DNA of 61,653 bases from a bacterium (GCA_030674455.1 JAUSGQ010000035.1:1-61653), one strand, 5' to 3'; positions 16,991 through 45,713 are shown, counted from the first letter of the stretch. Numbers and translations: made by a program. The notes: a model not told the origin generated them from the letters alone.

Positions 16991-17875
16991 ATGGCAAGCA
17001 TAAAAAAGACAGTAATTGTGACGGGCGGCGCAGGCCTCATTGGGCCTTCTTTGATAGAGCTTTTGCTCGAGAAATATAGGGTAGTTTCTCTGGACAGTTA
17101 CTTCATCGGCTCCGAGAGAAATCACATAGAAGGCGCTACATACATTAAGGGACATACCAAAGACATCGCAACGCTTCTCGCGAACGAAAAACCGTCGATA
17201 ATTTTTCATCTCGGAGAATACTCGCGCGTTGAGCAGAGTTTTAAGGACATAGAATTCGTGTGGGAATCGAATGTCGCGGGTACATTTCGAGTTCTTGAAT
17301 ACTGGAGAAAGCTCAATCAGGCGGGCAATGAATGCAAACTGGTGTACGCCGGCTCAAGCACAAAATTTGCGGACGGCGGATTGGGGCGCGACCAAAGCCC
17401 CTATGCGTGGATGAAAGCGAGCAATACCGAGCTCGTGAGCAATTACGGAGATTGGTTCGGCCTGCCATTCGCGATTACCTATTTCTACAACGGATATGGA
17501 CCGCGCGAACTTTCTGAAGGGCCATACGCGAGCGTGATGGGAATATTCAAAAAGAAATATGCCGCAGGGAAGCCAATTACCGTCGTTGCTCCCGGGACGC
17601 AGCGCCGCAATTTCACCCATGCAGATGACCTGGCGCGCGGGCTTTTTATGGTCGGAGAAAAGGGGCAGGGAGACGAATACGGTTTGGGAAGCCCCGAATC
17701 ATATTCTCTTCTTGAGATTGCACAGATGTTCGGCGGAACAATAGAAATGCTGCCGGAGCGAAAAGGTAATCGCATGGAATCGGTGATGGACACCTCGAGA
17801 GCGGAAAAAGAATTCGGCTGGAAGCCGGAACATACCGTTAAGGAATATATAGAATCGTTGAAGCATGCCCGGTAG
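16991..17875 (+). CDS. NAD-dependent nucleotide-sugar epimerase/dehydratase (extended SDR)
   Basis: VTGGAGLIG, YAGSS, SPYAWMK (YxxxK), FYNGYGP, RNFTH.DD. Confidence 0.88.
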   Translation: MASIKKTVIVTGGAGLIGPSLIELLLEKYRVVSLDSYFIGSERNHIEGATYIKGHTKDIATLLANEKPSIIFHLGEYSRVEQSFKDIEFVWESNVAGTFRVLEYWRKLNQAGNECKLVYAGSSTKFADGGLGRDQSPYAWMKASNTELVSNYGDWFGLPFAITYFYNGYGPRELSEGPYASVMGIFKKKYAAGKPITVVAPGTQRRNFTHADDLARGLFMVGEKGQGDEYGLGSPESYSLLEIAQMFGGTIEMLPERKGNRMESVMDTSRAEKEFGWKPEHTVKEYIESLKHAR

Positions 17876-18000
17876 GACAATTTCAAATTGCCTTGTATGA
17901 ATATCTATCAGCGGATAATAATAAAGTGTTTTCAGAATGGTTTGCAAAACATCCCCTGTTCGACCTGCGGCAGAAATTATTTGAAATTGTACTAACCGGG
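17868..18000 (+). mobile_element. MITE-like element family A copy 1 (133 bp, 4-bp TSD CATG)
   Basis: CATG|CCCGGTAGGACAATTTCAAAT...ATTTGAAATTGTACTAACCGGG|CATG. Confidence 0.85.
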
Positions 18001-18001
18001 C

Positions 18002-19234
18002 ATGACATACGAAAATAAAAAAAAGAGGATTTTAATCTTCTCTCTCACGTATCATCCATTCATTGGAGGAGCTGAACTTGCGATTAAAGAAATTACCGAC
18101 CGTATTCCCGCGAGCGAATACGAGTTCGACATGATAACTCTCCGATTCGACAAGAATTTACCGGAGATCGAGCGCATTGGGAACGTAACCGTGCACCGCA
18201 TCGGAATAACGACTGACTCGCCGCGCATATCCGACAGGAATATCCCTTTTGCGGCGAAGCTCGCGAAAATCCTTTTTCCGTTCTCGTCGTTCTTCAAAGC
18301 GCGCGCACTTCACAAAGAGCGCGCATACGATATGACGTGGGCGATGATGGCGAATTATGCCGCTTTCGGCGCGCTACTTTTTAAATACGCGAATCCGCAG
18401 ATTCCATATTTTCTTGAGCTTCAGGACGGCAACACGTTAGCGCAAGTAAAAGCGAGGCAGCCGATTTTGCGCTTATTATGGCCGTTTTATAGGAATATTT
18501 ACCTGAAAGCCGACATCATCAAGGCCATCTCGCATTTTATTGAAAAGCTGGCACGCGGAATCGGTTTTACAGGGCCGATTGTAGTAATCCCGAACGCGGT
18601 AGATGTCGCAAGGTTCTCTGCCGAAGTGCCGAAAGAAATGGAGGTGGAACTAAAATCAAAGTTCGGCAAGAAGTTAGGAGATGTCTTTTTGTTCACTGCC
18701 TCGCGGCTCGTTCTTTCCCGCGGAGTGGAGGACGTTATACGCGCGCTCGCGCATTTGCCGCAGAACGTAAAACTTCTGGTGGCGGGCTCCGGCGATGAGA
18801 AAGCGAAACTGGATAGTATCGCAAAAAAATCCGGAGTTCAAAGCAGAGTGATTTTTGCAGGTCAGGTTTCTCATTCGGAACTTCCCGCATATTACAAAAT
18901 ATCCGACATTTTTGTGCGTCCTTCCATCATCGAAGGGTTTGGAAGCTCGTTCGTGGAAGCATTTGCCGCGGGAATTCCCGTCGTAGCTACGCCCGTCGGG
19001 GGAATTAACGATTTTCTTTTTGATCCGGAGAGAAGTCCTGATAAGCCGGCAACCGGATTGTTTTGCGAAGTTAGGAATCCGGAATCAATTGCGCGCGCAG
19101 TCACTCGCTACATGAAAGAGCCGGTACTCGTCGCTGAAGTGGTGCAAAACGCGCGCACATTGGCGGAAAAAGATTATGATTGGGAAACCATCGCGAAAGA
19201 CGTAAAAACAAAGATATTTGACGCTCTAGTATGA
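18002..19234 (+). CDS. glycosyltransferase family 4
   Basis: GGAE, IPNAVD, ASRL, RPSIIEGFGSSFVEAFAAGIPVVATPVGG. Confidence 0.92.
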   Translation: MTYENKKKRILIFSLTYHPFIGGAELAIKEITDRIPASEYEFDMITLRFDKNLPEIERIGNVTVHRIGITTDSPRISDRNIPFAAKLAKILFPFSSFFKARALHKERAYDMTWAMMANYAAFGALLFKYANPQIPYFLELQDGNTLAQVKARQPILRLLWPFYRNIYLKADIIKAISHFIEKLARGIGFTGPIVVIPNAVDVARFSAEVPKEMEVELKSKFGKKLGDVFLFTASRLVLSRGVEDVIRALAHLPQNVKLLVAGSGDEKAKLDSIAKKSGVQSRVIFAGQVSHSELPAYYKISDIFVRPSIIEGFGSSFVEAFAAGIPVVATPVGGINDFLFDPERSPDKPATGLFCEVRNPESIARAVTRYMKEPVLVAEVVQNARTLAEKDYDWETIAKDVKTKIFDALV

Positions 19235-20373
19235 GAATTCTCATTGTCACTGGGATATTTGAGCCGGAAAGCGGAGGTCCGGCCGTTTACGCGCCGAACA
19301 TTGCGGGAAAACTTGTCGAAGCGGGGAATCAAGTTTCCGTGCTTACGTATTCTTCCAAACCCGGCGTAGATGCTGATACACGATATCCGTTCGCGCTCAC
19401 GCGGGTTGTCCGTGGAAATAAATTCCTAAATCGGTTCAGAATGTTCTTTGCCGTGCTTAGGCTCGCAAAAGATGCCGACCTTGTGTACATGCTCGATTGG
19501 TTCGCCGCGGGGTTTCCGGCGGCGCTCGCCGCGCGCTTGCGCGGCATTCCGTATGTCGTCCGCGTCGGAGGAGATTACTTGTGGGAGCAGAAATATCTTG
19601 AATCCGATGCCCCGCCTATTTCGCTTTCCGATTTTTATGAACGCGGCGTGTACAAGAGAATTTCGTACAAGCCGTTTTTCTGGATTATCCGCTCTGTATT
19701 AAATAATGCCGCAAAAGTTATCTTTAATTCCGATAAGCAGAAAGAGCTGTACCAGAAATTCTATGGGTTAAAGAGTGCTGTTACCATTTGCAATCCTGTT
19801 CCGCGCGTGGAAACGCAAGGAATCGTTCGTGGCGCTGTCACAAAAGAATTCGTTTACTGGGGCCGTTTTATCGTGATGAAAAATCTGGGAACATTGATTC
19901 GCGCGTTCGCAAAAGCGCGGATTCCCGAGGAATACAAGATTGCGCTCATCGGTGACGGCCCGCGCAAAGCGGAGATACTCTCGCTCATCGAAAAACTCGG
20001 CCTCTCGTCGCGCGTTCGCGTGGAACCCAGCATTCCGTTTTATGCTGCAATGGAGCGAATAAAGAATTGCCGAGCGTTTATTCTGCCGAGCTGGACTGAT
20101 ATTTCTCCCAATCAGGTATATGAGGCGCTTGCCATCGGACTTCCCGCAGTTGTCACAAAAGAAAATTATTTGAGCATCCGTAATCAACTGCCGGAGATGA
20201 TAGACCCTAATTCTATCGAGGACATTGGCTCGAAACTCGAAATGCTTGCGGATGACGCGAAGTATCAATCTTTCGCGGAGAAGTTTAGGACCATATCGTT
20301 CAAGAATACATGGGATGATGTAGCCCGAGAGCATCTTGCTGTTTTTGGCAGCGTGGTACATAAAAAGAATTAA
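19231..20373 (+). CDS. glycosyltransferase family 4
   Basis: FEPESGGPA, WGRF..MKNL, GDGP, LPSWTDISPNQVYEALAIGLP. Confidence 0.9.
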   Translation: MRILIVTGIFEPESGGPAVYAPNIAGKLVEAGNQVSVLTYSSKPGVDADTRYPFALTRVVRGNKFLNRFRMFFAVLRLAKDADLVYMLDWFAAGFPAALAARLRGIPYVVRVGGDYLWEQKYLESDAPPISLSDFYERGVYKRISYKPFFWIIRSVLNNAAKVIFNSDKQKELYQKFYGLKSAVTICNPVPRVETQGIVRGAVTKEFVYWGRFIVMKNLGTLIRAFAKARIPEEYKIALIGDGPRKAEILSLIEKLGLSSRVRVEPSIPFYAAMERIKNCRAFILPSWTDISPNQVYEALAIGLPAVVTKENYLSIRNQLPEMIDPNSIEDIGSKLEMLADDAKYQSFAEKFRTISFKNTWDDVAREHLAVFGSVVHKKN

Positions 20374-20374
20374 T

Positions 20375-21526
20375 ATGCGCGTGTTACAAATAGGAACAGA
20401 CAGGACAATATTTGATTCCAACAGCGCATCCGCTTCGCGTATGCGCGCATACGGAAAACGCTTCGGAGGGCTTGATATCATCGTTTTTTCGCTGATAAAG
20501 CACGGAGTTCAAGACACAAATTTGAGTGAACACGTGCGTGTGCACGCGACCAATTCCTTCTTTCGTTTTATGTACGTGTGGGGCGCGGTATGGCTTTCGT
20601 TCAAATTGCCGAAGCCGGATGTGGTTTCCGTTCAAGACCCTTTTGAGACCGGGATTGCGGGATGGCTCATAGCACGATTGCGAGGCTCGGCGCTTCACGT
20701 GCAGTTACACACCGATTTTCTTTCCCCGGAATTCTCTCGGCTCTCGCTCCTCAACAGGTTGCGTGTCCAGATTGCGGGATTTGTTTTACGGCGCGCGTCC
20801 CGCATCCGCGTTGTTTCTGAGCGAATCAAACGCTCACTCAAAACTAAAAACTATAAACTAAAAACTGAACCTACGGTGCTGCCGATTTTCGTCGATGTAG
20901 AGAAATATCGCAACGCTCAAGTTAGCCCCAAGCTTGCGGCGCACGAGCATTTATTCCGGACGAAGTTGCTCGTGGTCTCGCGGCTCGAACCCGAGAAGAA
21001 TGTAGGGCTCGCGATACACGCATTCGCCAAAGCCGCATTGGAAAATTCTTGCCTCATTATTATCGGCGAGGGCAGAGAGGGCGAGAAGCTTCACCAGATG
21101 GCTATCCAAAGGGGAGTATCAAAATGGGTGTTTTTCGAAGGGCAAACTGATCCCGCGCAATATTACAAAATTGCGGATTTATTGCTCGCGCCTTCGCGAT
21201 ACGAAGGGTACGGCATGGTCGTAGTCGAAGCGCTTGCAGCCGGCACGCCCGTCATTTCGACAGATGTCGGTGTCGCGCGAGAAGCAGGAGCGATTATCGC
21301 AGAAGAAGACGATTTCGCGAAAGCGATTACCAACTGGTTCGCGAATGGCTCGTCCACAGGCGAATCAGCAGATTTCGTGGCTAGGCCTGCCGCCACAACC
21401 GGCGGCTCGTCCACAGATGCCGCCACAACCGGCGGCCCGAAAGAAGGAAAGCTCCTGAACTACCCGTACAAGAATTTTGAGGAATACGTCAAGGCGTACT
21501 GTAAGGACATCGAATCCTCTACCTGA
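20375..21526 (+). CDS. glycosyltransferase family 4
   Basis: QDPFETG, VSRLEPEKN, PSRYEGYGMVVVEALAAGTPVISTDVG; start reassigned to 20375. Confidence 0.9.
   Translation: MRVLQIGTDRTIFDSNSASASRMRAYGKRFGGLDIIVFSLIKHGVQDTNLSEHVRVHATNSFFRFMYVWGAVWLSFKLPKPDVVSVQDPFETGIAGWLIARLRGSALHVQLHTDFLSPEFSRLSLLNRLRVQIAGFVLRRASRIRVVSERIKRSLKTKNYKLKTEPTVLPIFVDVEKYRNAQVSPKLAAHEHLFRTKLLVVSRLEPEKNVGLAIHAFAKAALENSCLIIIGEGREGEKLHQMAIQRGVSKWVFFEGQTDPAQYYKIADLLLAPSRYEGYGMVVVEALAAGTPVISTDVGVAREAGAIIAEEDDFAKAITNWFANGSSTGESADFVARPAATTGGSSTDAATTGGPKEGKLLNYPYKNFEEYVKAYCKDIESST
21347..21436 (+). repeat. in-frame duplicated hairpin insert near the GT4 C-terminus
   Basis: TGCCGCCACAACCGGCGGC at 21388 and 21418 (period 30); GGCTCGTCCACAG at 21347 and 21404. 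Confidence 0.7.
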
Positions 21527-21597
21527 AACATTTGCATGGGAAATACACAGGCCTATGCTTCTTAACGTATATTGGCACACATCAATATTTGTTTTCG

Positions 21598-21641
21598 ATA
21601 TCCTTAATACCTCACCATGGCGGATTGGTAAGTAAGGATAT
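21598..21641. repeat. palindromic flank repeat 1 of the PaaX/Cas2-like gene
   Basis: ATATCCTTAATACCTCACCATGGCGGATTGGTAAGTAAGGATAT; ends are a 9-bp inverted repeat. Confidence 0.7.
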
Positions 21642-21657
21642 GGGCATGGGAGCGGAA

Positions 21658-22236
21658 TTACTTAAGTTTAAAATGGCGTTTAATCCACGCGTCATTTTCT
21701 ACACTTTCTACCACAGCATAAAGCACGTCTTTCCCTATACGCAGGTCTGCTTTAATGAGCACGACCAACTCCTCGCAATCATGTGGGAATATCCATACGC
21801 TGTCCTGCAATCGCAAGAATCCACACTCGCGCATAATTCCTCGCAAGCGGTCGCGCGTGGCTCTGCGGTATTGAGGCACATCAAACATAACGAGGCGGTA
21901 TCGTTTGTCCCAGTGGCGCGTTATATCTGATTGATTAGCGATTTTCATCTTGTTCAGCGCAAGCGTCTGCCGACCCTTTTCCGTGAGTTCGGCGCATCGG
22001 ACTCCGTTGCGCCTAACGAAGCGAAGAAGCCCCCTTTTTGCAAGCTGGCCAGATGCTGTCTTGACTTTATCTCCAAGTTTATATTTGTCGCCGAGCAGGC
22101 GGGGAAGCATCTGAAAAATGTTCGGAGCAATCATTGCAATGGCAAGAACTCCCGCAGTGCCGACTGTCGAAAGTACAGCTCCCTGAATATCCCTTCTCCT
22201 CCTCCTCATTCTTGCCTCCGATTCGACTTTTCCCAT
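21658..22236 (-). CDS. PaaX-like protein (wHTH + Cas2-like domain), not CRISPR-linked
   Basis: LTEKG wing then WDKRYRLVMFDVP..RR..RD.LR..GF.RLQDSVW..PHDC; start reassigned to ATG 22236. Confidence 0.82.
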   Translation of the reverse strand: MGKVESEARMRRRRRDIQGAVLSTVGTAGVLAIAMIAPNIFQMLPRLLGDKYKLGDKVKTASGQLAKRGLLRFVRRNGVRCAELTEKGRQTLALNKMKIANQSDITRHWDKRYRLVMFDVPQYRRATRDRLRGIMRECGFLRLQDSVWIFPHDCEELVVLIKADLRIGKDVLYAVVESVENDAWIKRHFKLK

Positions 22237-22274
22237 GTCCTTAATAATACACCATAGCGAGGTGGTAAGGATAT
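22235..22274. repeat. palindromic flank repeat 2 of the PaaX/Cas2-like gene
   Basis: ATGTCCTTAATAATACACCATAGCGAGGTGGTAAGGATAT, a direct homolog of 21598-21641 that overlaps the start codon. Confidence 0.7.
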
Positions 22275-22421
22275 TTGTAATACGTATAGTATAATATGGG
22301 CAGAATAATGGGAGTGGAGCGTCAGGGTTCGAGATTTGGGCTGGAAAATTGGAGTTGAAAATGTTGTATTTTAGGTGTGGAAAACATAAACACATGGGAA
22401 AAGCGATGCAATAATGGCAGT

Positions 22422-25292
22422 ATGCTCTTTTCTTCCAAGGCTATTTCTGAATATTCGACTGTCATAATATTTTGTTTGTTATTGGCATCTGGTTTGTCTA
22501 TGATGCCGGGTATCGCAGGAGCGCAGGATATGGATGCTCCCCCATTGCCGCCAGCGACCTTTCGTGCGGAACATGACGGAATTTCTGTTTACAATGGCAA
22601 TTTTGGCGATGATGACCCTTTTTTGCCTCCCGAAATAACGACATACCGTTCTTCGCAACTTTCTGCAGTAGATGGCAGTTGGATTATTGAAACGTTTCCA
22701 TGGGAACACTATATCCCTCTTGAAAGAGGAGCGTTTCTTCTCGAACGTATAGATCCGGACACGAATGGATTTGAGGGAGGCACCGGTATACGCGGACAGA
22801 ATTACGACTTCGCTCATGCAAGTATTAATACTGCAACGACAACGAGTACAGTTGCTTTCTCGATTCCGTATCTCGGTTCATCCGGACTAGAATCAGGCCA
22901 GTATGCCATCTATCCGGTGGAATTGCCTCAAACAAAAGTAGTATATGACGGTCCCGCAGCGAACGAATCAGTATTTACCGACGAAGATTTGGAAAAAATC
23001 ATTGAGGAAGATCCTTGGTACAGCAATAATGTCAGAGCCGACATTACATACGGGTTTTCAGCAATATTTAATTACGTAAATGACGGTCCGCCTCCATGCA
23101 CGCAGGATTGTTTTTCCAACGTTCTTTTTCTTCCGGGGATTAAAGCGAGCCGTCTGTATAAGTCACGTCCGCCGGGTTGCGTGACCGATTGCGAAGACCA
23201 GCTTTGGGAGCCAAACGCCAACAGCGATGTCGAAGATTTGTTCTTGAATTCGGACGGTACGAGCATTCGCGATGACATCTACACGCGGGATATTATGGAC
23301 GAGCATACGTCGACGGGAAATGGCGACGTATACGGGACGTTTGCCGCATTTATGGGCAATGAGGTGAGCGCGGGAGTCATAAAGGATTGGGTGGCGATTC
23401 CCTATGATTGGCGGCTCGACCTTGAGTACGTGGTCGAAAACGGAACGTCGCTGGACGGAAATCTTTCATACATTGGTGCGGCGGCATCCTCCTACGCGGT
23501 GAACCAGGTTCTTCGTCTCGCAGAAAGCTCAAAGAGCGGGAAGGTGACAATCGTTGCCCACTCAAACGGCGGATTATTCGCAAAGCTTCTGGTTAACAAG
23601 CTCAAAGAAATGGGCAAGGAAAATCTTATCGACAAGATAGTATTTGTCGCCGTTCCACAGACGGGGACTCCGAAGGCAATCGGAACCCTGCTCCATGGTT
23701 ACGAGGAAGCAATTCTTTCGGGCATTATCACCAAAGCATCTACCGCGAGAATACTCGCAGGCAATACTCCAGAAGCATACAACCTGCTTCCTTCGGAGGA
23801 ATATTTCAACGGCGTAGTTACGCCGCCAGTTCTCTTTCCTTTCGAAACTGCGACAGCTCAGAATCTTCGCGCCGCCTATGGCGTTTCAATCGGGTCATAC
23901 GAAGCTCTCCACAGATTCCTGCTCGGGCTTGAAGGACGCCCGAAACCATCTGCAGACGAAACGAATCTTCCCGATGTACTGAATTATGACCTGCTGACTC
24001 GGGCCGAAGCATTACATGCGAAGCTCGATGTATGGACGCCACCCGATGGGGTGGCGCTCTATGAAGTGGCGGGAGTCGGACTTCTCACGCCGTCGGGAAT
24101 CAAATATGTCGACGATTGCCCGATTTTCTGTCCAATGAGAAGCCCGTATTTAGATTTTGAGCCAGAGAATGTGATTGAAGGGGATGGCACGGTGGTTGAT
24201 GCGAGCGCGCTTGCGGGAACTGGGACTAATTATTATTTCAATGTGGACAGATACAATGCCACTAACGGATCATTACCGTCGGTTCAGCACGCCTCTCTAA
24301 TGGGGGCTTCCGACATCACTTCATTTATTGCTCAAATTATTAAGAAGGAAATAGGTGATTCACTCCCCAGCACCATTACAACCACTAAACCGTATTTTGC
24401 CAACGCCAAACATCTCATCTATCGCGTTCACTCACCCGTTTCTCTAGACCTATACGACAGTTTGGGTAATCACACGGGCGTTGCTACGACGACTCTATCT
24501 GATGGGACGGTCGTGAGTTATGTCGAAAACAATATTCCAGGCTCCTACTACGATGAATTCGGGGAAGTGAAATATATCTTCTCTGATGGCTCGGAGCAGG
24601 TAAATATCGTACTCAATGGATTAGGTTCCGGCGTTGCAACGTTTGATATCAACGAAATGACGGGCAACACGTTCGTCGCTTCTACAACATTCGTCAATAT
24701 CGCTGTCATTCCGCAGACGCGAATTACTATGGGTATACAGGCGGGAGGAACTATTTCCGGAGCGTCAGCTCTTCAAGTTGATGAGGATGGAGACGGGACG
24801 GTGGACTCCGAGCTTCCTGCGGGAGGCACGGTAATGTATGACGATTTTGTCAAAGATGACACAGAAGAAGTTTTAGAGACGGTGGTTACTGCGCCGGCCC
24901 AACCTGCTCCATCAGGGGGCGGCAACGGGCCGATAGTAGTTGCGCCGAGCTTCACCCCAAGCATCTCGGTAGCCACGACCACCGTATTGCCCGAGATTGC
25001 CACGAGTACACCCATGCAGATTGTTGCGGCTGCCAGCACTACATCAGTTGCCACCACTACAGTTACTCAAGAATTCCAAGCAGGAACATCCTCAGTCAAA
25101 ATTGCTCGAACCATAGTTGCCCCGAAAGTCACACAGAAAAGAAACAGTGCGACAAGTACGAACAATGTTAGACTAGTCGCAGGCGCGGCGGCGAGTCTTC
25201 CCGCCCCCATTAACCCCCAAGGCGGGGAGAGGTGGTGGTCGAACATATATAAAATGGCGAGAAACATTATTCGCTTAATTATCGGTCTATGA
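22422..25292 (+). CDS. large secreted LCAT/PLA2-like alpha/beta-hydrolase (lipase/acyltransferase)
   Basis: Signal peptide; VLFLPGIKAS, PYDWRL, IVAHSNGG nucleophile elbow, PQTGTPKA, GDGTV and QHASL (Asp/His); Thr-rich tail; start 22422 inferred. Confidence 0.82.
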   Translation: MLFSSKAISEYSTVIIFCLLLASGLSMMPGIAGAQDMDAPPLPPATFRAEHDGISVYNGNFGDDDPFLPPEITTYRSSQLSAVDGSWIIETFPWEHYIPLERGAFLLERIDPDTNGFEGGTGIRGQNYDFAHASINTATTTSTVAFSIPYLGSSGLESGQYAIYPVELPQTKVVYDGPAANESVFTDEDLEKIIEEDPWYSNNVRADITYGFSAIFNYVNDGPPPCTQDCFSNVLFLPGIKASRLYKSRPPGCVTDCEDQLWEPNANSDVEDLFLNSDGTSIRDDIYTRDIMDEHTSTGNGDVYGTFAAFMGNEVSAGVIKDWVAIPYDWRLDLEYVVENGTSLDGNLSYIGAAASSYAVNQVLRLAESSKSGKVTIVAHSNGGLFAKLLVNKLKEMGKENLIDKIVFVAVPQTGTPKAIGTLLHGYEEAILSGIITKASTARILAGNTPEAYNLLPSEEYFNGVVTPPVLFPFETATAQNLRAAYGVSIGSYEALHRFLLGLEGRPKPSADETNLPDVLNYDLLTRAEALHAKLDVWTPPDGVALYEVAGVGLLTPSGIKYVDDCPIFCPMRSPYLDFEPENVIEGDGTVVDASALAGTGTNYYFNVDRYNATNGSLPSVQHASLMGASDITSFIAQIIKKEIGDSLPSTITTTKPYFANAKHLIYRVHSPVSLDLYDSLGNHTGVATTTLSDGTVVSYVENNIPGSYYDEFGEVKYIFSDGSEQVNIVLNGLGSGVATFDINEMTGNTFVASTTFVNIAVIPQTRITMGIQAGGTISGASALQVDEDGDGTVDSELPAGGTVMYDDFVKDDTEEVLETVVTAPAQPAPSGGGNGPIVVAPSFTPSISVATTTVLPEIATSTPMQIVAAASTTSVATTTVTQEFQAGTSSVKIARTIVAPKVTQKRNSATSTNNVRLVAGAAASLPAPINPQGGERWWSNIYKMARNIIRLIIGL

Positions 25293-25726: not shown

Positions 25727-25792
25727 GGAATTGGAGGACATAACCAAAGTTTAAATGAGAGTTCGAGTATCTATTTCCTGGTACTTTGCTAG

Positions 25793-27751: not shown

Positions 27752-27754
27752 AGC

Positions 27755-37627: not shown

Positions 37628-37669
37628 TGGTGCAGTATATAACGCAGAATACAGTTGAGTCGAAAGCTT

Positions 37670-37820: not shown

Positions 37821-37860
37821 AGTTATCTAACTTTTCCCCATTCTTCAACTATCGGGTACA

Positions 37861-38535
37861 ATGACCGAAATAGCAGCTATGGACCGTGTAAAAATCCCAA
37901 TTTTGAGCGCAATTTCTGGGGCGTTATCCGGTAAGACCATTGGCAGGGTGTATTTTAACGAAGCGGTTCGCGGGGTAGTCCCTGGGCTTTCCGGGCGCGT
38001 TCTTGACCTTGCAGGAGGCAAAAGCCCCAGTTACTTACCGCTTCTGCCGAATTCGATTGAGCTTGTGCGAACGGATATAACAGCTTCCCCCGGCGTCACG
38101 AAAGTGGATATCAACGAGCCGCTTCCATTTCCCGACAAATCATTTGATGCTGTCTTTCTATTTAATGCGCTTTATGCAACAGAAGACCCTTCTAGGCTTG
38201 CAGGAGAAATCCATCGCGTCCTGAAACCCGGAGGTTCCTGGTATCTCGCGTCTCCTTTTGTTGCAAATGAGATGCCCGAGCCGCACGACTATCTCCGCTT
38301 TACCGCCGAGGGGTTGGAGCGGCTTTGTCATAGTGCAGGATTTTCTTCAGTGGAAATTGTGAGACTGGGGGAGCGTGCAACTGCCGCCACACAGCTTCTG
38401 CACCCGTTTTTTCTTTTTAATGTTATTAGGGCACTCGTATATTCTCTGGCGCTTCTTTTCGACATGCTTATTCCCAGCTCTGTTAAAACGACACACCCAT
38501 CGCCCATCGGTTATTTTGTACGTGCAACGAAATGA
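37861..38535 (+). CDS. class I SAM-dependent methyltransferase
   Basis: VLDLAGG, LPFPDKSFDAV, EIHRVLKPGG, PHDYLRFT. Confidence 0.9.
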   Translation: MTEIAAMDRVKIPILSAISGALSGKTIGRVYFNEAVRGVVPGLSGRVLDLAGGKSPSYLPLLPNSIELVRTDITASPGVTKVDINEPLPFPDKSFDAVFLFNALYATEDPSRLAGEIHRVLKPGGSWYLASPFVANEMPEPHDYLRFTAEGLERLCHSAGFSSVEIVRLGERATAATQLLHPFFLFNVIRALVYSLALLFDMLIPSSVKTTHPSPIGYFVRATK

Positions 38536-38659
38536 ATACACATCATGAGCAAGAGTGTTATTGAATCCGCAAAATCATATATAAGCGAGCGAGCAACCGC
38601 TGCACATGAACAGCTCTCTTCGAAGTTTTGGGCAATGATAAGCTCTTTGGAAGACAGGT

Positions 38660-39832
38660 CTACGTCGTCTCCATCTCAAATATGAGAGGATGTTTCACCC
38701 CGGCAAGTTCCTTGTACAAAGCAATTGTGTTGTCCAGTGTCCTTGTCATCGTAAAGAATTGAGCGCGCGCGAAACCGCGTTTGATGAGGGTTGCCCGCAC
38801 GGGCGCTTTACAGACAAGCGCGAGTGCCTCCGCAATCGCATTGGTGTCTAACGGATTGACAATGATAGCGGCGTTACCTACTACCTCTGGAAGCGATGTC
38901 ACAGAGGACGCGATAACTGGTGTGCCACATGCCATAGCTTCAATTAAAGGGACTCCGAAGCCCTCATTAATTGATACGAAAGCAAGAGCGGCTGCTCCTC
39001 GGTAGAGTGCCGGAAGATTTTCTGTCGGTATATAGCCGAGAAAATGGATATCTGCGCTGAAGGGTGACAGCGGAAGCGCTCCAAATGTTTTCTCGTATTT
39101 TGTTTTGACGCTGCCGCCCAAGGCCAAAATCTCTTTACTTTTTGGATTGCGTTCTCGGTACTTCACGTATGCAGATACAAGATTCCCAACATTTTTGTGT
39201 AATTCGGGGCGGCCGAGAAAGAGAAAGTACGTATGAGCTTTTATATGGTATTGATTGAGTATGCGAGATACTGTCTCATCACTTGGTAGGGATTCATATA
39301 CTGGGTCAAGGCCGTTATAGATGGTGCGGACTTTTTCAGGGGGCATGCGATAGGCATATATGATTTCTTTGTTTGCATATTCAGAAACGGCAATCATCGT
39401 ATCAACATATTTCTGGAACCAGGTAAGCGTGTAGTTGAATACGCGGCGAGAGAACGTCCATGTGCCCCCCTGAACGAGAACGTCGCCACCACCGTGCGCC
39501 ATGACGAGGGTGCGTCGAGCCGGAAACAGCCAAAAGAACGGGAATATCCGTGGCTTAAGCCAATGCACGACGTCAAACCTCTCTTTGGTTGTCAGGCAAA
39601 ATCGTATGAACGACACAAAGCGCGTGGCGTATGGCAGTGGAATCTGGTGGAGCAATATCTCGCGGGCTTTTTTGTAGAGCGGTTCTTCCGGCATGGGCTT
39701 TGAATGGATAAGCGTGAGCTCTATCTCATTTTCCGTAACGAGCCGCTCAATGAGGCGGCGAAAAAAAAGCGTGCGCTCCGGCCGCAGGTCAAAATCATCT
39801 GCCATGATGGCCACGCGAATTTTCTTTTGCAT
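38660..39832 (-). CDS. glycosyltransferase family 4
   Basis: [35 protein letters not shown]. Confidence 0.92.
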
Positions 39833-39884
39833 CGAGTTGCAGTATACGGGCTTAAAGGAAAATTTCCATATACTCGAAAAGCTC

Positions 39885-40667
39885 TCACGTAACCTCTCCC
39901 TTCACCTCGTGGAAATCAAGACCTACTTCCTCGGCGATTTTCTTCTTGCAGGCAACACGAACCTTACTCAGTTCCCGAAGGTCAAGAGTGCGGCGCCCCA
40001 TTTCTTCCAGACCGAATTCATCCTCTCGCCCTTGGCGTATCGCAGATTCTATATCCCATACGTGGCCGTTAATCTCTTTCATTTCTTCAACCCACGCATC
40101 CTTGACGTCAATGCCTTCATTGCGGTAGCTATCAAGCACCTTTCGATAGAATGTGTATTCTTTTTTGATAAAAGCGCGGTTATTGTCGTGATGCAACCGC
40201 TCAAGCTTGAGCATGGCGATGGTGACTCTATCAATAGCTTCAGGGAGCGGCAGTTTGAGACTGGTGTCGGAGGCGCTGGATTCAATCGGCACCTCGTAGA
40301 AATCAATCTTTACCTCACCGGCGATTTGACCCTTAATGATATTTCTTTCATTGTTCTTGTCGCGGAGTTGCACGGCAAGACGCCCGACATCTTCAAGCGT
40401 CAGCTTGTTTTTTCTCGCCTCCCGTATGGCGGCCTCCACATCCCATAGCGCGGCGTTAGTCTCTTTCATGCGCGTAATCCATTCGTCCTTGATGACGAGA
40501 CCGTCATCTCGGTAGCTGTCCAACACTTTCCGATAGAAATCGTATTCCTTCTCGGCGATGATGCGGGATTGTTCGTCGGTCAGCCGTTCCCGCTTGAGCA
40601 TGAGGATAGTAATTCTATCGATAGCTTCAAGGAGAGGGACTTTGAGGTTGGTGTTTACGTAGCGCAT
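39885..40667 (-). CDS. tandem-duplicated DUF6165-like helical protein
   Basis: Two ~130-aa repeats: EAIDR(I/V)TI.MLK.ERL...KEY.FYRKVLDSYR...MKE.N...WD.E.AIR. Confidence 0.7.
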   Translation of the reverse strand: MRYVNTNLKVPLLEAIDRITILMLKRERLTDEQSRIIAEKEYDFYRKVLDSYRDDGLVIKDEWITRMKETNAALWDVEAAIREARKNKLTLEDVGRLAVQLRDKNNERNIIKGQIAGEVKIDFYEVPIESSASDTSLKLPLPEAIDRVTIAMLKLERLHHDNNRAFIKKEYTFYRKVLDSYRNEGIDVKDAWVEEMKEINGHVWDIESAIRQGREDEFGLEEMGRRTLDLRELSKVRVACKKKIAEEVGLDFHEVKGEVT

Positions 40668-40741
40668 CGGATGAGTATATCAGGCCGCTTCCTGCTGTGC
40701 GCGAAAGGAGGTCTTTTTTTGAGTGAGTTATAATTATCGCT

Positions 40742-41623
40742 ATGCCACTTCTTGTTGCGGTTTTATATAATCTTGCGTTGCCCTACTGGGACACGCTTAG
40801 GAAAAATCTTGCGCAAAAGGGAGTCTCATCGCTGACGATTCTTCACGCACCCAATCTCATCGGCCACCCCATAGGGATAGCGGTTCTATTCGCGCTCGGA
40901 CTTTTTGCGATGCCATCCGACCCCACCTTTTTCTTATTTTGGTTCGGAATGATAGTGATTGCGTCCGTGGCGCAAACTTTCAACATCTGGGGATTGCTTG
41001 AGACGAAATTTTTTGGCGTACAAGTCCTCAATAGCTTGGGATTTCTCGTCAACAGTATCGCGGCGGTGATCCTTGTTGGAGAACATCTGAACTCTATTCA
41101 ACTCATAGCAATCGCACTCGCTACTATCGGAGTGGTTTGTTTTGCTTGGCCGCAACGCATGGCGCCCGGTACCTTCAAGTGGGACAGAGGCGTCATGTTC
41201 GTCATCCTGTATCTCGTACTTTCTGGGTTCTCGGCGGCACTCTATAAGCTCGCCACATTTCACACGCCCGATTACAACACGTTTCTTACGGGCCGTTTTG
41301 TTGGCGACCTAATCGGATGGACGATTGTCTGGGTCATCGGTCTTACTTTAATCAGCCATCGCAGTCCTGCCGCAGAATTAGTTCGCTGTGTGAGCAATCC
41401 TTCGGGGCAGAAAATGATAGCGGGTATTATTCTCTCAACGTTGGTAAGTTCGTGGCTGATATACACGTTGCCGCTCTCAACGGTCGCAATGCTCGGGACT
41501 CTCACGATTCCGAGCGCGTATTTGTACGGACGCTTCAAATATAATGACAAGGTAACAACGCGAATGTGGGCAGGAACTGCTCTTATTGTTCCGGCGGTGC
41601 TACTTTTTATTTATTTCCGATAG
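40742..41623 (+). CDS. DMT/EamA-like ten-TM transporter
   Basis: About 10 TM helices in two halves; AVILVGEHLN..Q pattern. Confidence 0.7.
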   Translation: MPLLVAVLYNLALPYWDTLRKNLAQKGVSSLTILHAPNLIGHPIGIAVLFALGLFAMPSDPTFFLFWFGMIVIASVAQTFNIWGLLETKFFGVQVLNSLGFLVNSIAAVILVGEHLNSIQLIAIALATIGVVCFAWPQRMAPGTFKWDRGVMFVILYLVLSGFSAALYKLATFHTPDYNTFLTGRFVGDLIGWTIVWVIGLTLISHRSPAAELVRCVSNPSGQKMIAGIILSTLVSSWLIYTLPLSTVAMLGTLTIPSAYLYGRFKYNDKVTTRMWAGTALIVPAVLLFIYFR

Positions 41624-42370
41624 TGTCGGTTTATGTATGACGGAGACGCCGCGTTGCTGGACGACCTGCGTAGTGCAAATATTCGCAAACCGGATGGCAT
41701 CTTCAATATTGCCAGTCTCTGCATACCGCACCAAGAGAGCGGCGAAGAAGCTGTCTCCTGCACCTGAAGAATCTTTTGTTTCTATTCTTTCTACGGGGTA
41801 CATCTTTCCTTTAAAATTGGCGCCATGCTCGCCTTTGGTGCAGATTATTTTCCTCGCGATATCCTTCGCGATTGGCCACGAGCGGTCGTACTCGTAGGCG
41901 TTTATTTTAATGAATTTTGCGCGCCGCAGGAAGGCACCAACGGGCTTTTTCGTATCTACGAAGACGCAATCGTGATGCTCGCAAATATACTGCATGTCCT
42001 CTTTGGTCAAGAATCCTTTGTTGTAATCCGATATCGCGATGATATCGTATTTCTTTAAAGGGAGCTGGCGCACATTTATACGCTTCATGGTGTGGTCCGC
42101 ATCCACTCTGAAAAAGCCCTGGTTGGTTCTGTGGTGCATGTAGCGTATTTTGGTGACCTTGCGCCAATTTGTGTTTGTCACAATGTCGCACAACTTGTAA
42201 AGCGCCTTCACGTTGCGCTCCACGTTCTTCGCCATGCCTGGGTTCTCTGTCTCTTCAACTATTTCCAGGATTGGCACAGGAATATCCGGCGCTAGTCGAA
42301 GGCTGTTGCAATACACGAATATGTCGTAGCAACTCTCACCGACGACGAGTATTTTTTTATGGTTTTTCAT
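41600..42370 (-). CDS. PfkB-family kinase, HldE/RfaE domain I-like (heptose 7-phosphate kinase)
   Basis: ILVVGE..DIFVY...RLAPDIPVP, PGMAKNV, ISDYNKG, VDTK, DSSGAGDSF. Confidence 0.82.
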   Translation of the reverse strand: MKNHKKILVVGESCYDIFVYCNSLRLAPDIPVPILEIVEETENPGMAKNVERNVKALYKLCDIVTNTNWRKVTKIRYMHHRTNQGFFRVDADHTMKRINVRQLPLKKYDIIAISDYNKGFLTKEDMQYICEHHDCVFVDTKKPVGAFLRRAKFIKINAYEYDRSWPIAKDIARKIICTKGEHGANFKGKMYPVERIETKDSSGAGDSFFAALLVRYAETGNIEDAIRFANICTTQVVQQRGVSVIHKPTLSEINKK

Positions 42371-43404
42371 GAAAGTGTGATTGAGGGCGCCAGATGCAAC
42401 TCTTCAAACGTCAGCACGTGCTTAATATCAGGTTTCTTCATGGCTCGCAAGACAGCGTTCGCGATGTCCACTTTTGTCGGATAGTAGCTCTCGGTCAGCG
42501 CGGTGGAGGTCGGGCAGGGGACTGCGGGAGTGCAAAGAGCAACCGGCTTGTTTTTAAGCGGCATGACTTTTGCTACAGCCGCGATAATTTCAGAACCGAT
42601 TGAAAACGCGGCTGGCGCCGTATCCACACATAGGAGGCGTCCAGTCTTTGCCACTGACTTAGCGATAGTTTCGTTGTCAACGGGATTAATGCTCACAACA
42701 TCAATCAGTTCTATGCCCGCGGATTTTCCGACCAGGTCATATGCTTCAAGCGCAGATACCAGCCCATCGCCGTATGCAACCACTGTTATATCAGCCCCCT
42801 TTTTCAGCACTTTTGCCTTATCAAGCGGCTCCTCCCACATTTCTGCAGGCACGTCTTGTTTTACCTTGTAGAGCCAGCGCGACTCTAGAATAATTACGGG
42901 ATTGTTATCGCGAACTGCCGAGATGAGGAGCCCCTTTGCCATTCGCGGTGTTGACGGTATGACGACCTTAAGCCCCGGGGTTCCTCCGAACAGGCCGTAT
43001 AGCGATTGCGTATGCTGCGGCCCGTTGCCCCATTGCCGACCGACAGCGATGCGTAATGTAATCGGCACGGGGTTTCCCCCACCGAACATGTAATTCCATT
43101 TTGCAGCTTGAGTGAGGATTGGGTCCATCGCTAGCAAACTGAACTCGACTCGCCCATGGTGCACGATAGGCCGTAGACCGCTAAATGCCGCGCCGACCGC
43201 CATTCCGGTGAATGCATTTTCTGACACGGGGACGTCCAGCACTCTTTTTGGATATTTCATCGCAAGACCGGAGGTTGTTCCGTCTGCTGCACCGTCTTTA
43301 TATGAGACGCCGAGTCCAACAACGAAGACCGACGAGTCTTTTTCTAAGAGTTGGTCGGTTGCTTCTCGGACCGCATCTGTATATTTAAGTATTCTTTCAG
43401 ACAT
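42367..43404 (-). CDS. TPP-dependent 2-oxoacid dehydrogenase E1 beta-like subunit
   Basis: DVPVSEN..TG.AVGAA..GLRP, GPQHTQ, PGLKVV.P, DNNPVI; start reassigned to 43404. Confidence 0.88.
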   Translation of the reverse strand: MSERILKYTDAVREATDQLLEKDSSVFVVGLGVSYKDGAADGTTSGLAMKYPKRVLDVPVSENAFTGMAVGAAFSGLRPIVHHGRVEFSLLAMDPILTQAAKWNYMFGGGNPVPITLRIAVGRQWGNGPQHTQSLYGLFGGTPGLKVVIPSTPRMAKGLLISAVRDNNPVIILESRWLYKVKQDVPAEMWEEPLDKAKVLKKGADITVVAYGDGLVSALEAYDLVGKSAGIELIDVVSINPVDNETIAKSVAKTGRLLCVDTAPAAFSIGSEIIAAVAKVMPLKNKPVALCTPAVPCPTSTALTESYYPTKVDIANAVLRAMKKPDIKHVLTFEELHLAPSITLS

Positions 43405-43421
43405 ACAATGAATCAGGCAAA

Positions 43422-43550
43422 CCCGGTTAGTACAATTTCGAATAATTCTTGCGGCTGCTGGTTCGAACAAAAACTGGTCGTTCGCATCAGCACGCTTGTG
43501 TTTTCAGTGTATGTGTTCATATCAGAGTAATTCGAAATTGTCCTACCGGG
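43422..43550 (-). mobile_element. MITE-like element family A copy 2 (129 bp, TSD TTTG on minus strand)
   Basis: Minus strand: TTTG|CCCGGTAGGACAATTTCGAAT...ATTCGAAATTGTACTAACCGGG|TTTG; internal similarity to 17868-18000. Confidence 0.85.
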
Positions 43551-44544
43551 CAAACACGTTAGTATAAAGTGTTTCCGGTTTCGGATACGGAGCCGCAAAC
43601 GCAAAAGCGATGCTTTCATCGGCGTATCTGATTTTCTCGCTTTCGATCGATGCGAGTTTCTTCTCGGACACGCCTGCACGCCGAAGTTCCGATCGAAGTC
43701 TTTTAATCGAATCTTGCTGCAATCGTTTTTCCAGCACATCCTCTTTTCGGCTGCTTTCGTCGAAGATCGGAGCGCTATGCGCCATGTGGCGGTGCGTGAA
43801 GCACTCCAACACCCCCGGACCGTTGCCCTTTCGCAAATACGCGACCATTTTTCCGGCTTTTACGCGGACGTCGCGATAATTCTTTCCGTCTGCCTTAATA
43901 TATTTTGCGCCAAATCCTCTAACGATTTTGGCAACGTTATGTCCCTCGGCTCGCCTGTCTTTGAGCGGAGAATTGACTGAATATAAATTATTCTCCACGA
44001 CTATAAGAAGCGGAAGCTTGAAAAGCCCGGCAAGGTTAATGGTTTCGTAGATAACGCCTTCTTCAAAAGCGCCGTCTCCCAAGAACGCAACAGTGACACT
44101 TTTTCTCTTATTGTATTTTTGTTCAAAGGCTACCCCGCAAGATAATGGAACTACGCTTCCAAGAATAGGCGTTGAGCCGACAAAATTAACCGAGCGGTCA
44201 ACCATGTGCATTGACCCGCCCTTGCCTTTGGCGAGTCCGCCTTCTTTCCCGAGCAATTCGCATACCATGCGCTTGAGATCGCCTCCTTTTGCGAGATAGT
44301 GCCCGTGTGAGCGGTGATTGCCGAGCATCTTGTCCTTGAGTCCAATACTGTCTGCAACGCCGACCGCTACGGCCTCCTGCCCTATGTAGAAATGAACGAA
44401 GCTCATTATTTTGTTCTTCAAATACAGGGCGGCTATCTTTTCTTCCGCAACACGTATAAGAAACATTTTCTCGTATGCGCGCAGAAGAGCGCCGGTTGAT
44501 AGCGCCACGTCTTGCCTTTTATTCTTGCGCGATATTATTGCCAT
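43543..44544 (-). CDS. TPP-dependent 2-oxoacid dehydrogenase E1 alpha-like subunit
   Basis: HFYIGQEAVAVG, HRSHGH, KGKGGSMH, LGDGA.EEG...ENN (TPP motif). Confidence 0.9.
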   Translation of the reverse strand: MAIISRKNKRQDVALSTGALLRAYEKMFLIRVAEEKIAALYLKNKIMSFVHFYIGQEAVAVGVADSIGLKDKMLGNHRSHGHYLAKGGDLKRMVCELLGKEGGLAKGKGGSMHMVDRSVNFVGSTPILGSVVPLSCGVAFEQKYNKRKSVTVAFLGDGAFEEGVIYETINLAGLFKLPLLIVVENNLYSVNSPLKDRRAEGHNVAKIVRGFGAKYIKADGKNYRDVRVKAGKMVAYLRKGNGPGVLECFTHRHMAHSAPIFDESSRKEDVLEKRLQQDSIKRLRSELRRAGVSEKKLASIESEKIRYADESIAFAFAAPYPKPETLYTNVFAR

Positions 44545-44545
44545 A

Positions 44546-44679
44546 CCCGGTTAGTAGAATTTCGGCTTGCCGAAGGCGAAAGCTGAGAATAATAGACGAA
44601 GTATACACATCTGTACTGCGTGGTCGACCTTACCCATCTCAGGGGCGGCAAAAAACATAGCCGAAATTACACTACCGGG
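44546..44679 (-). mobile_element. MITE-like element family A copy 3 (134 bp, TSD TATG on minus strand)
   Basis: Minus strand: TATG|CCCGGTAGTGTAATTTCGGCT...AGCCGAAATTCTACTAACCGGG|TATG. Confidence 0.8.
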
Positions 44680-45713
44680 CATATATCTATCATGATTCTG
44701 TTTGCCTTACCGTCTCTCATGAGAGCGATGGCCTCGTTTATGTTTTCGAGCGATGTGCGGTGCGTGACGAAGTCGTCTGCCTTCAATTTGCCTGAACGAT
44801 ATAAATCAATATATCGCGGTATATCGCGCGCAGGTGAGAATTGTCCGCCCTGCGTTGCTTTGATCATTTTGCCCTCTCCGCCGAATAAGTGAAGCGCGTC
44901 CACCAGACCAACGCTCTCTCCAGGTTTAGGTTGGCCCACCATAATGTAGCGACCAGAACCAGCCAAGAGGGGAATGGTATCCTCAATACTCTTGCTATTC
45001 CCGGAGGTCTCCACAATAACATTGACCCCCTTGCTTCCGCATACCCTTTCAACAGCTTCTCGTACATTTTCTTTTGCACTGTTTATGAATATGTTTGCCC
45101 CGAGGGATAATGCGGCATCCTTTTTACGGTCGTGTATATCGACTGCGATTATCGGGTTTGCCTGCGCAAGAACTGCGGCCTTTATGAAACAAGCGCCTAG
45201 CCCGCCCAATCCTACTATCATGACACTTTCTCCGGGCTGTACCCGTGCTTCATTCTCTATGGTCGCGAGAGCGGTTGAGAGGCCGCATCCGAGCAATGCG
45301 CAGAAATCATTTGGAATATCCGCCGGCACTTTAGTAATCCGATTTTCCGACACGACAGAATATTCGCTGAATGTCGTTACCTTGCCGCTCGGCATCTTTT
45401 TCCCTTTATATGTATACGTGGGAAAGTCTGATTCAATACCGTCTCCCTTGCGCCAGTGCAACACTACTTTGTCGCCCTTTTGCACTTTTGTTACATCTGC
45501 GCCCACATCAGCGACTTCTCCGCATCCTTCGTGTCCGAGAAGGTGAGGCACGAATTTCCCATTGCCTTTGTTGCCGGCGATTTCTTGAAGCTGGGATCCG
45601 CATATTCCGCTTACGAGGATTTTTACCAGCACCTGACCGCGCCCTAGCGCTCCGAGTTCAACATCGGCAATGACGAGCGGAGCGTTGATTGTCTCTAATA
45701 TGGCGGCTTTCAT
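44667..45713 (-). CDS. zinc-binding alcohol dehydrogenase (MDR family)
   Basis: SGICGS, LGHEGCG, LLGCG, GLGGLG; structural-Zn cysteine loop absent. Confidence 0.9.
   Translation of the reverse strand: MKAAILETINAPLVIADVELGALGRGQVLVKILVSGICGSQLQEIAGNKGNGKFVPHLLGHEGCGEVADVGADVTKVQKGDKVVLHWRKGDGIESDFPTYTYKGKKMPSGKVTTFSEYSVVSENRITKVPADIPNDFCALLGCGLSTALATIENEARVQPGESVMIVGLGGLGACFIKAAVLAQANPIIAVDIHDRKKDAALSLGANIFINSAKENVREAVERVCGSKGVNVIVETSGNSKSIEDTIPLLAGSGRYIMVGQPKPGESVGLVDALHLFGGEGKMIKATQGGQFSPARDIPRYIDLYRSGKLKADDFVTHRTSLENINEAIALMRDGKANRIMIDICPVV

Follow-up and report, generated by a model that had tools for sequence, protein, structure and literature searches.

What are the three short repeats with inverted ends that lie between neighbouring genes in a 61,653-nucleotide stretch of bacterial DNA, how do they move, and how do the adjoining genes live with them? 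The stretch, called the window throughout, is one whole contig (C12) among the 66 contigs of a 1.25-Mb genome (G000) that has 50% G+C and is scored 97.8% complete. Its host is an ultra-small groundwater bacterium of the Candidate Phyla Radiation type. An original prediction, made from the window alone, had described the repeats as a family of miniature transposable elements with inverted repeats (MITEs), family A, directed at gene junctions. Comparison with the rest of the genome and with related genomes shows that the family is mobile, that it duplicates 4–5 bp of its target, mostly YATG(A), that it inserts in one orientation relative to that target, and that most surviving copies lie exactly on a start codon and are co-oriented with the gene. 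On the strength of the sequence patterns described below, we assign a probability of roughly 0.6 to a fuller reading, in which the three repeats would be MITE-type, gene-less copies of a 302-bp element encoding a GIY-YIG nuclease, moved by that nuclease and kept by a translational relay.

The repeats, their empty sites and their targets

The window copies begin with CCCGGTAG(GAC/TGT)AATTTC... and end with ...GAAATT(G/C)TACTAACCGGG. The pairing between their arms extends over approximately 21–25 nt and includes one bulged A, which is conserved, and a G.A mismatch in the main subfamily. With up to 3 mismatches allowed, the window contains the right-end 18-mer three times, compared with 0.07 occurrences expected from shuffled sequence. 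The original prediction described the elements accurately. Their inverted ends and coordinates hold, the direct repeats read CATG, TTTG and TATG in gene orientation and are each identical at 4/4 positions, and all three copies have the same orientation relative to transcription, being co-oriented with the flanking genes. The elements and their duplications are as follows.

17868–18000, plus strand: copy 1, short element, 133 bp; left arm approximately 17868–17888, right arm approximately 17979–18000
17864–17867, plus strand: left target duplication of copy 1, CATG; a single CATG is present at the empty orthologous sites of genomes G060 and G046
18001–18004, plus strand: right duplication of copy 1, CATG; its ATG (18002–18004) starts the GT4 gene
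43422–43550, minus strand: copy 2, short element, 129 bp
43551–43554, minus strand: left duplication of copy 2, TTTG; 4/4 identical to the right repeat
43418–43421, minus strand: right duplication of copy 2, TTTG; 4/4 identical to the left repeat
44546–44679, minus strand: copy 3, short element of subfamily CCCGGTAGTGTAATTTCGGCT, 134 bp
44680–44683, minus strand: left duplication of copy 3, TATG; its ATG (44682–44680) opens a frame that spans the element
44542–44545, minus strand: right duplication of copy 3, TATG; its ATG (44544–44542) starts the E1-alpha-type gene

The genes on either side are the following, with asterisks denoting stop codons.

16991–17875, plus strand: NAD-dependent epimerase/dehydratase gene (Pfam PF01370, E 1.3e-35), ending ...KHAR*
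18002–19234, plus strand: GT4 glycosyltransferase gene (Pfam PF00534, E 1.7e-36)
44667–45713, minus strand: Zn-dependent dehydrogenase gene (Pfam PF00107 and PF08240), ending ...CPVV*
43543–44544, minus strand: E1-alpha-type dehydrogenase gene (Pfam PF00676, E 6.2e-59), with its ATG at 44544–44542
42367–43404, minus strand: E1-beta (transketolase-like) gene (Pfam PF02779 and PF02780), downstream of copy 2

In all three copies the upstream gene now ends inside the left arm, as had been claimed. The epimerase/dehydratase gene ends HAR* at a TAG (17873–17875) within the left arm of copy 1, and the Zn-dependent dehydrogenase gene ends CPVV* at a TAA (44669–44667) within the left arm of copy 3. Copy 2 is inserted five codons before the end of the E1-alpha gene, which now ends FAR* at the left-arm TAG. 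As a rule for the family the claim is too broad, since an element supplies the stop codon of the upstream gene at only 6 of 22 host sites in the genome. The right duplication holds the ATG of the next gene in copies 1 (18002) and 3 (44544), again as proposed, and the E1-beta start (43404) lies 14 nt beyond the right repeat of copy 2. Such insertions matter for annotation because they shift apparent gene starts and ends; in the window they give rise to the HAR*, FAR* and CPVV* tails and to spurious short open reading frames (ORFs).

Related genomes provide the same junctions in an unoccupied state. The epimerase–GT4 junction of copy 1 was found in 10 syntenic cases, of which seven are element-free and three carry a different inverted-end family. 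In G060 and G046, where GT4 is 83% and 75% identical, respectively, the sequence ...AAGCATG... is present once and the upstream gene ends HD(I/A)RK*, overlapping the ATG. The copy 3 junction is empty in four of four syntenic relatives, and in G016 it reads GACATATGGCAGTAA (DIWQ*) with one TATG. The copy 2 junction is empty in three of four relatives (G016, G069 and G061). At the position homologous to copy 2, G014 carries a family-A element between TACG repeats, and in G016 TACG stands there once. The ends of this element are identical to those of copy 2, and the interiors differ. Because the 4-mer is single at the empty orthologous sites, the family is mobile and its duplications are true target duplications. 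These natural empty sites also agree with the junctions that the original prediction had rebuilt by removing each element in silico, and the outcome that it had named as refuting, empty sites lacking a single copy of the 4-mer, is not what they show.

The three occupied cases of the copy 1 junction, in G048 (L013), G051 (L015) and G074 (L023), hold a family with ends CCCCGTTAGAAG...CTTCTAACGGGG. In G051, the glycosyltransferase frame begins at an ATG inside the CCCCGTTAGAAG-type element and reads through its right end, so that the element supplies the new start and the first residues of the gene.

A search of all contigs for family-A termini retrieved 21 intact short copies of 129–137 bp, one interrupted copy, one right-end fragment (C27) and one 302-bp copy (C15). 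A further 33 copies were retrieved from seven same-genus genomes. The family pattern is present in 7 of 24 other same-genus genomes and was found in none of 16 genomes from other families of the order. In the present genome the flanks are perfect (4/4) at 15 of 23 sites and comprise eight kinds of tetramer, namely TATG, CATG, TTTG, TGGA, ATAA, CAAG, TACG and TACA; the remaining sites comprise one 5-bp duplication (TATGA), six matches at 3/4 and one at 2/4. Among the 33 copies in relatives, 20 have perfect 4-bp flanks and 7 more have 5-bp duplications, read by eye, of TATGA or TACAA. The polarity of the element relative to its flank is constant in every copy, such that CATA-CCCGG, for example, is never seen. 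One insertion is nested (C11:21092–21359), with an inner copy placed at an internal TATG of the outer copy and itself flanked by TATG, and a gene start is therefore not required for insertion. The duplications, fixed orientation, empty sites, nested copy and eight perfect 4-mers together bear out the view that this is a mobile, non-autonomous element.

Start codons are prominent among the targets. Of the 22 host sites here, 13 have a duplicated ATG that serves as a gene start, by the criterion that an ORF of 73 or more codons opens at the right-flank ATG; among relatives the count is 20 of 33, where the ORF had to reach 74 codons or extend past the end of the 300-nt flank. When only YATG-flanked host sites of this genome are considered, 12 of 13 are on gene starts. 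In the background, which was taken from crude gene calls, start codons make up 3.4% of all YATG sites and 17.8% of YATG sites outside genes, giving binomial probabilities of 3e-17 and 1e-8, respectively. The strong association with junctions that had been noted is real, and is better read as oriented insertion at YATG(A) followed by survival of the insertions that spare genes than as targeting of junctions.

The family shows the features of a MITE: inverted ends of approximately 21–25 nt, a target duplication, a short multi-copy form, no mobilising gene inside, and ends in common with a longer coding element. The longest frames inside the short copies of this genome are 32–46 codons. The object is a MITE with a putative autonomous partner. 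Among public sequencing runs, one DNA run from a groundwater metagenome (X1), and no RNA run, was found to contain the stretch; this DNA run may be its source, and it also bears on the abundance of the family. Contigs of this run aligned to 42900–45200 reach a depth approximately 3–10 times that of the flanks over the bins at 43362–43592 (containing copy 2) and 44517–44593 (an arm of copy 3), with many joints and loose ends leading to other copies or interiors, and the same ends are therefore abundant in that groundwater community. None of these contigs is joined across an empty site; contigs drop rare variants and are hence silent on polymorphism.

A proposed 302-bp partner and the paired ends

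The original prediction had seen no transposase in the window, and no GIY-YIG gene is present there. A candidate partner is nevertheless found elsewhere in the genome.

C15:59946–60247: full-length copy, 302 bp; ends identical to those of the short copies; TATG flanks

The search for long copies with coding capacity, which had been proposed as a check, thus succeeded here and in 4 other species of the genus, whose full-length copies are 302–303 bp long and lie each on a different start codon with YATG/TATG flanks. The only gene of the 302-bp copy encodes a 99-residue GIY-YIG protein, and its frame is read through both ends of the element. The frame starts at the duplicated host ATG, encodes MPGRTISNR through the left arm, continues into the YYVYVL...YIGYT... 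domain, and ends ...SKLY* at a TAA within the right arm, which leaves 6 nt to the ATG of a host ORF of 236 codons. The product matches the Pfam GIY-YIG domain (PF01541) with 53.5 bits (E 3e-14), and its nearest solved structures are the UPF0213 proteins 1zg2 (E 1e-5) and 1ywl (E 1e-4). Scanning the nuclease against NCBIfam returned nothing above cut-off, with TIGR01453 at 18.4 bits relative to a cut-off of 56. The full-length genes differ from one another at 23–39 third codon positions, as opposed to 3–23 at positions 1 or 2, and this third-position excess indicates purifying selection on the nuclease gene.

The short copies follow the end variant of the full-length copy in their own genome. 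Compensatory arm variants distinguish the full-length copies from one another, with ACAATTT/AAATTGT replaced by AAAGTTT/AAACTTT, and T6/A by C6/G. The one full-length copy of G070 is of the C6 type, as are 21 of the 25 short copies in that genome, which have the end CCCGGCAG. In the present genome, the full-length copy and 20 of the 21 short copies have CCCGGTAG, and the remaining short copy has CCCAGTAG. Across the 24 same-genus genomes, a homologue of the nuclease with at least 60% identity is present in 2 of 7 with short copies versus 0 of 17 without them. Judged by eye, short copies resemble the full-length copy over no more than approximately 33 nt at the left side and 38 nt at the right side, and we rejected the idea that the interiors of the short copies are remnants of the nuclease gene.

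Small GIY-YIG genes are widespread in the genus, being present in 87 of 116 genomes. Almost all of the 28 GIY-YIG loci examined are bracketed by lineage-specific inverted ends, often between ATG repeats, and the end types at these loci are CCC(G/C)GT(T)AG, CCCGCAC or CCCTGTTAA. The present genome has another such gene (C10:72102–72323, minus strand), a 102-codon frame within a perfect 18–19-nt inverted repeat, ACCCAGCACCTTGTTTGT / ACAAACAAGGTGCTGGGT. This locus appears to be one more element of this kind, with ends that are unrelated.

The ends of the family are conserved as a pair. In a set of 54 copies from 8 genomes, pairing between the arms is kept in 92.5% of cells versus 77.9% in shuffles, with slid controls at 30–44%. 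Changes on both sides are seen at 16 of the 25 arm pairs, and compensatory cells number 179, a value that none of 500 shuffles reached, compared with 69 in shuffles. This conservation fits either of two explanations: a need to fold, as single-stranded DNA (ssDNA) or as RNA, or a single protein that reads both ends. The presence of 24 G.U cells at one pair leans towards folding. A GTAG motif is located at element positions 5–8, inside the paired stem. Predicted RNA folds of copies 1, 2 and 3 have energies of −45.2, −46.2 and −51.7 kcal/mol (z −4.8, −5.1 and −4.5), and in each case none of 200 shuffles was as stable. The only match in an Rfam scan of the window at gathering score is a tRNA at 5603–5674, and the elements match no Rfam family.

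Copy 3 has a GAAT to GGCT change in one arm that is matched by ATTC to AGCC in the opposite arm. The original prediction was right that these matched changes exist; they mark a subfamily common to other species and did not arise in copy 3. This subfamily (CCCGGTAGTGTAATTTCGGCT) also keeps an interior block, GGTCGACCACGCAG, across species (L068, L069, L094, L095 and L098; G021, G010 and G017). Its copies in relatives lie mostly off start codons and have no relay frame of the kind described below, and they may have a different role or history.

Open frames that end at host start codons

All three window copies contain or are spanned by an open frame that stops just short of the downstream gene.

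17897–17995, plus strand: internal frame of copy 1; ATG at element position 30, 32 codons, TAA at 17993–17995, 6 nt before the host ATG
43413–43520, minus strand: internal frame of copy 2; ATG at 43520–43518, 35 codons, running through the right arm to the original TGA of the E1-alpha gene (43415–43413)
44551–44682, minus strand: frame spanning copy 3; 43 codons from the left duplicated ATG to a TAA (44553–44551), 6 nt before the host ATG

In copy 1, a TTG at element position 21 is in the same frame as the internal ATG, and in copy 2 the TGA lies 8 nt before the E1-beta start at 43404. A start-to-stop frame ending within a few bases of the host start is present in 17 of the 21 short copies of this genome, compared with 4.5 ± 1.8 when the interiors are shuffled (0 of 2000 shuffles), and in 23 of the 33 copies of relatives, compared with 9.2 ± 2.4 (0 of 1000 shuffles). 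In a hand tally, the relay frame was found in 29 of 31 copies on starts versus 11 of 23 elsewhere (Fisher test, 3e-4). The way in which the frame is built depends on the length class of the element. Where the length leaves a remainder of 2 on division by 3, the frame runs from the duplicated ATG to the TAA of the arm. At 132 or 135 bp it opens at a conserved internal ATG and closes at the TGA of TATGA, and at 133 bp it opens at the internal ATG and closes at the TAA. Since the frame varies with length class and yet stays open, in an interior that is otherwise free, selection appears to act against stop codons and not for a peptide.

The original prediction had suggested that the elements uncouple translation of adjacent cistrons. 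Frames that stay open in 17 of the 21 copies of this genome and in 23 of the 33 from relatives speak against this, and we infer that the elements re-couple translation by a relay rather than uncouple it. The fuller reading can then be set out as a series of steps. The resident GIY-YIG nuclease would recognise the paired ends, the bulged hairpin that compensatory changes have kept, and the same nuclease would mobilise full-length and short copies alike. After insertion, the short frame would open at the duplicated ATG or at the conserved internal ATG or TTG, be translated through the hairpin, and terminate at or next to the host ATG. Ribosomes would then re-initiate on the host gene instead of being blocked, and the copies would persist for that reason.

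Alternative readings and related systems

Several points count against an element that is moved by its nuclease and kept by a relay. To our knowledge, GIY-YIG enzymes are hydrolytic nucleases with no strand-transfer or joining activity, which leaves the 4–5-bp duplication unexplained. The genome contains 16 Y1_Tnp (HUH) matches, which are possible actors on the hairpins. No close full-length copy is present in 5 of the 7 same-genus genomes with short copies (4 of these 5 are only 77–83% complete), and the subfamily of copy 3 is without a cognate full-length copy in this genome. Mismatched flanks always combine a left CATG with a right TATG and never the reverse (five cases: C37:17068, C37:25691 and C56:106419 here, L070 and L093 in relatives), a one-directional pattern that a simple duplication model does not predict; either a base is carried along with the right end, or the base that precedes the host ATG is under selection. 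The excess of start codons may partly reflect survival of harmless insertions rather than targeting. For the relay, the figures of this genome alone (10 of 11 on starts versus 7 of 10 elsewhere, p 0.31) are not significant, common descent makes the copies less independent than the shuffle and Fisher tests assume, and stops are somewhat scarce on the reverse strand too, with an open frame in 14 copies versus 9.8 expected.

The GIY-YIG protein could instead be a homing-type endonuclease that cuts empty YATG sites, with the element copied in by host repair through a few shared flank bases, rather than a transposase that works on the ends of its own element. The GIY-YIG enzymes known from mobile DNA, such as I-TevI and the T4 Seg proteins, are homing endonucleases, and such homing genes resemble the 302-bp element in that a GIY-YIG nuclease is the sole protein of a piece of selfish DNA. 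The right-flank TATG opposite a left CATG, in three copies here and two in relatives, looks as if a donor base travels along, and the variation in duplication length between 4 and 5 bp points the same way. We nonetheless consider this explanation unlikely. The flanks beyond 4–5 bp are unrelated between sites, and ordinary homology-driven homing therefore cannot operate. Eight tetramers, including TGGA, ATAA and CAAG, are precisely duplicated, which a staggered target cut fits better than donor-templated copying, and the ends are conserved as a paired structure that would be superfluous for a pure homing gene. Homing endonucleases have added DNA-binding domains, long specific targets and homology-driven repair into one allelic site, whereas here the protein is a bare domain of 99 residues, the ends are inverted, the duplications are short, and the sites number in the dozens and are unrelated.

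The short copies might also be REPIN-like hairpins moved by a Y1 enzyme of the IS200/RAYT (HUH) type, with the GIY-YIG gene a passenger or a separate occupant of the same ends. REPIN/RAYT and IS200/IS605 systems use HUH tyrosine enzymes and have a GTAG tag that is unpaired at one end of the palindrome, and IS200/IS605 elements, which have no inverted ends, insert in one orientation on the 3' side of a specific tetra- or pentanucleotide. Like family A, these are hairpin repeats distributed across compact genomes, and in both cases the presumed mover is a small nuclease that works on folded single strands. The likeness extends to the GTAG in the family-A ends, to the folding of the element as one long hairpin, and to insertion that is oriented relative to a tetranucleotide, here YATG; the 16 Y1_Tnp matches, in a genome of 1.25 Mb, provide candidate enzymes. 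The differences make a Y1 route improbable. The GTAG of family A takes part in the pairing of the stem instead of forming an unpaired tag, the end variants track the GIY-YIG copy, and inverted ends with duplications set the family apart, since we know of no target duplication left by REPIN or IS200/IS605 movement. In a survey of 40 relatives, Y1 matches are present in 22 of the 24 same-genus genomes irrespective of the presence of the family (7 of 24). No convincing family-A termini, and hence no convincing bracketed Y1 gene, were found within 1.5 kb of the 16 Y1 genes; of two matches with 2–3 mismatches, the one on C45 is in coding sequence without a partner, and the one on C60 (3 mismatches) was not inspected. 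RAYT genes can be flanked by long inverted repeats, according to the abstract of PMC3733652, which counts in favour of this route. The 16 Y1_Tnp matches are mostly frames of 225–306 codons and lie on C19, C45, C56, C11, C59, C44, C63, C60, C1, C24 and C10.

About as improbable is a role of the hairpins as intercistronic RNA structures that serve the host, uncoupling translation or directing mRNA processing or termination and so tuning operon expression. In favour of such a role, the hairpins are predicted to be highly stable (−45 to −52 kcal/mol; z between −4.5 and −5.1). The ends are the same here and in G014 at one and the same junction despite differing interiors, which could mean selection after insertion, and the copy 3 subfamily has a conserved interior and lies mostly off start codons in relatives. 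Conserved ends are, however, equally expected from mobility, most orthologous junctions function without an element, and translation of the open frames would melt the hairpin. The original prediction had thought of glycan genes in particular, a proposal that finds no support in the positions of the copies: only copy 1 lies between glycan genes (epimerase and GT4), and the other two of the three window copies flank the Zn-dependent dehydrogenase, E1-alpha and E1-beta genes. Least probable is that the short frames encode functional small proteins and that the elements are mobile mini-genes. Open frames of 32–50 codons are indeed present in most copies here and in relatives, but the peptides that they would encode show no conservation from copy to copy, different length classes use different frames, and only the absence of stops is preserved.

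Other candidates can be set beside these. The DDE families PF01609 and PF00665, the only two DDE families searched, have no match in the 97.8%-complete genome, and neither does the TnpB-type family PF07282. The idea that the elements are integron attC sites was set aside on the grounds of core motifs that do not fit, the dispersed copies and the duplications.

The reading in which short copies are moved by the GIY-YIG nuclease and kept by a relay also has to be placed among known short repeats. Correia elements (CREE/NEMIS) and other bacterial MITEs are similar in having a length of 100–150 bp, inverted ends of approximately 25 bp, target duplications, many copies, co-transcription and long hairpins. 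The Correia elements of Neisseria duplicate TA and are not known to be tied to start codons, and we know of no autonomous partner for them. Family A differs in its 4–5-bp (YATG) duplication, its full-length partner and its translatable frames.

The closest published system is the Ssn family. Ssn nucleases are small GIY-YIG enzymes that cut ssDNA beside hairpin repeats (NTS/SRM) flanking their genes (Chenal et al. 2025, Nat Commun 16:2388, PMC11893778), and in the available sections of that article the authors remark on an insertion-sequence (IS)-like layout as a hypothesis only. As far as those sections go, both systems have a single-domain GIY-YIG protein of approximately 100 residues, and in both the gene is bracketed by repeats that are also present as many gene-less copies in the genome. 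Each Ssn flank, as described there, is a self-contained hairpin of 20–50 nt, whereas here the two ends pair across the element. Target duplication, empty sites, start-codon position and read-through of the repeats are found here and are not reported in the same sections (PMC11893778). The published SRM motif (PMC11893778) matches 0 of 22 elements, is absent within 500 nt of the 4 small GIY-YIG genes, and has 4 matches in the genome compared with 11 in a shuffle. A literature search, with subscription-only papers outside its scope, found no published description of prokaryotic GIY-YIG elements with inverted ends and target duplications, in keeping with the earlier view that the family is uncharacterised.

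A bolder reading goes beyond the partnership of nuclease and short copies, and we offer it tentatively, as somewhat less likely than not. The 302-bp element may by itself be a full, autonomous transposon belonging to a class that has yet to be recognised in prokaryotes, whose sole protein would be a bare GIY-YIG nuclease of approximately 100 residues, partly encoded by its own inverted ends and acting on them in folded form. Such an element would insert in an oriented manner at YATG, take over the start codon and translation signals of the host, and repay the host with a rebuilt ATG and a stop-restart; Ssn-type pairs of nuclease and repeat would be its relatives or domesticated forms. If the nuclease does move the elements, then at approximately 300 bp they would be among the smallest self-contained mobile elements, and a fourth or fifth kind of enzyme driving bacterial transposition would have to be recognised. 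The same outcome would make biological sense of the IS-like arrangement around the recently described Ssn nucleases, enzymes that attract interest as ssDNA tools. The copies in relatives occupy dozens of start codons, and start-codon position together with kept relay frames suggests how a parasite may live in the densest part of a minimal genome without silencing genes. In these bacteria, which cannot be grown in culture, the system also provides a natural setting for testing translational restart and the melting of hairpins.

Two further inverted repeats are present in the window. A 26-nt pair, 92% complementary and 46 nt apart, is located at 16824–16921, between an ORF ending at 16824 and the epimerase gene (start 16991), and may be a small element or a terminator. 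A second inverted-end family is represented at 56490–56622 (sense strand minus) by an element with ends CCCGCACACT... / ...AGTGTGCGGG, which abuts the TATG start of a 389-codon ORF (55319–56488, minus strand). Its flanks are CCCA and TATG, with no duplication, and ends like these bracket GIY-YIG genes in two other species (L059 and L064).

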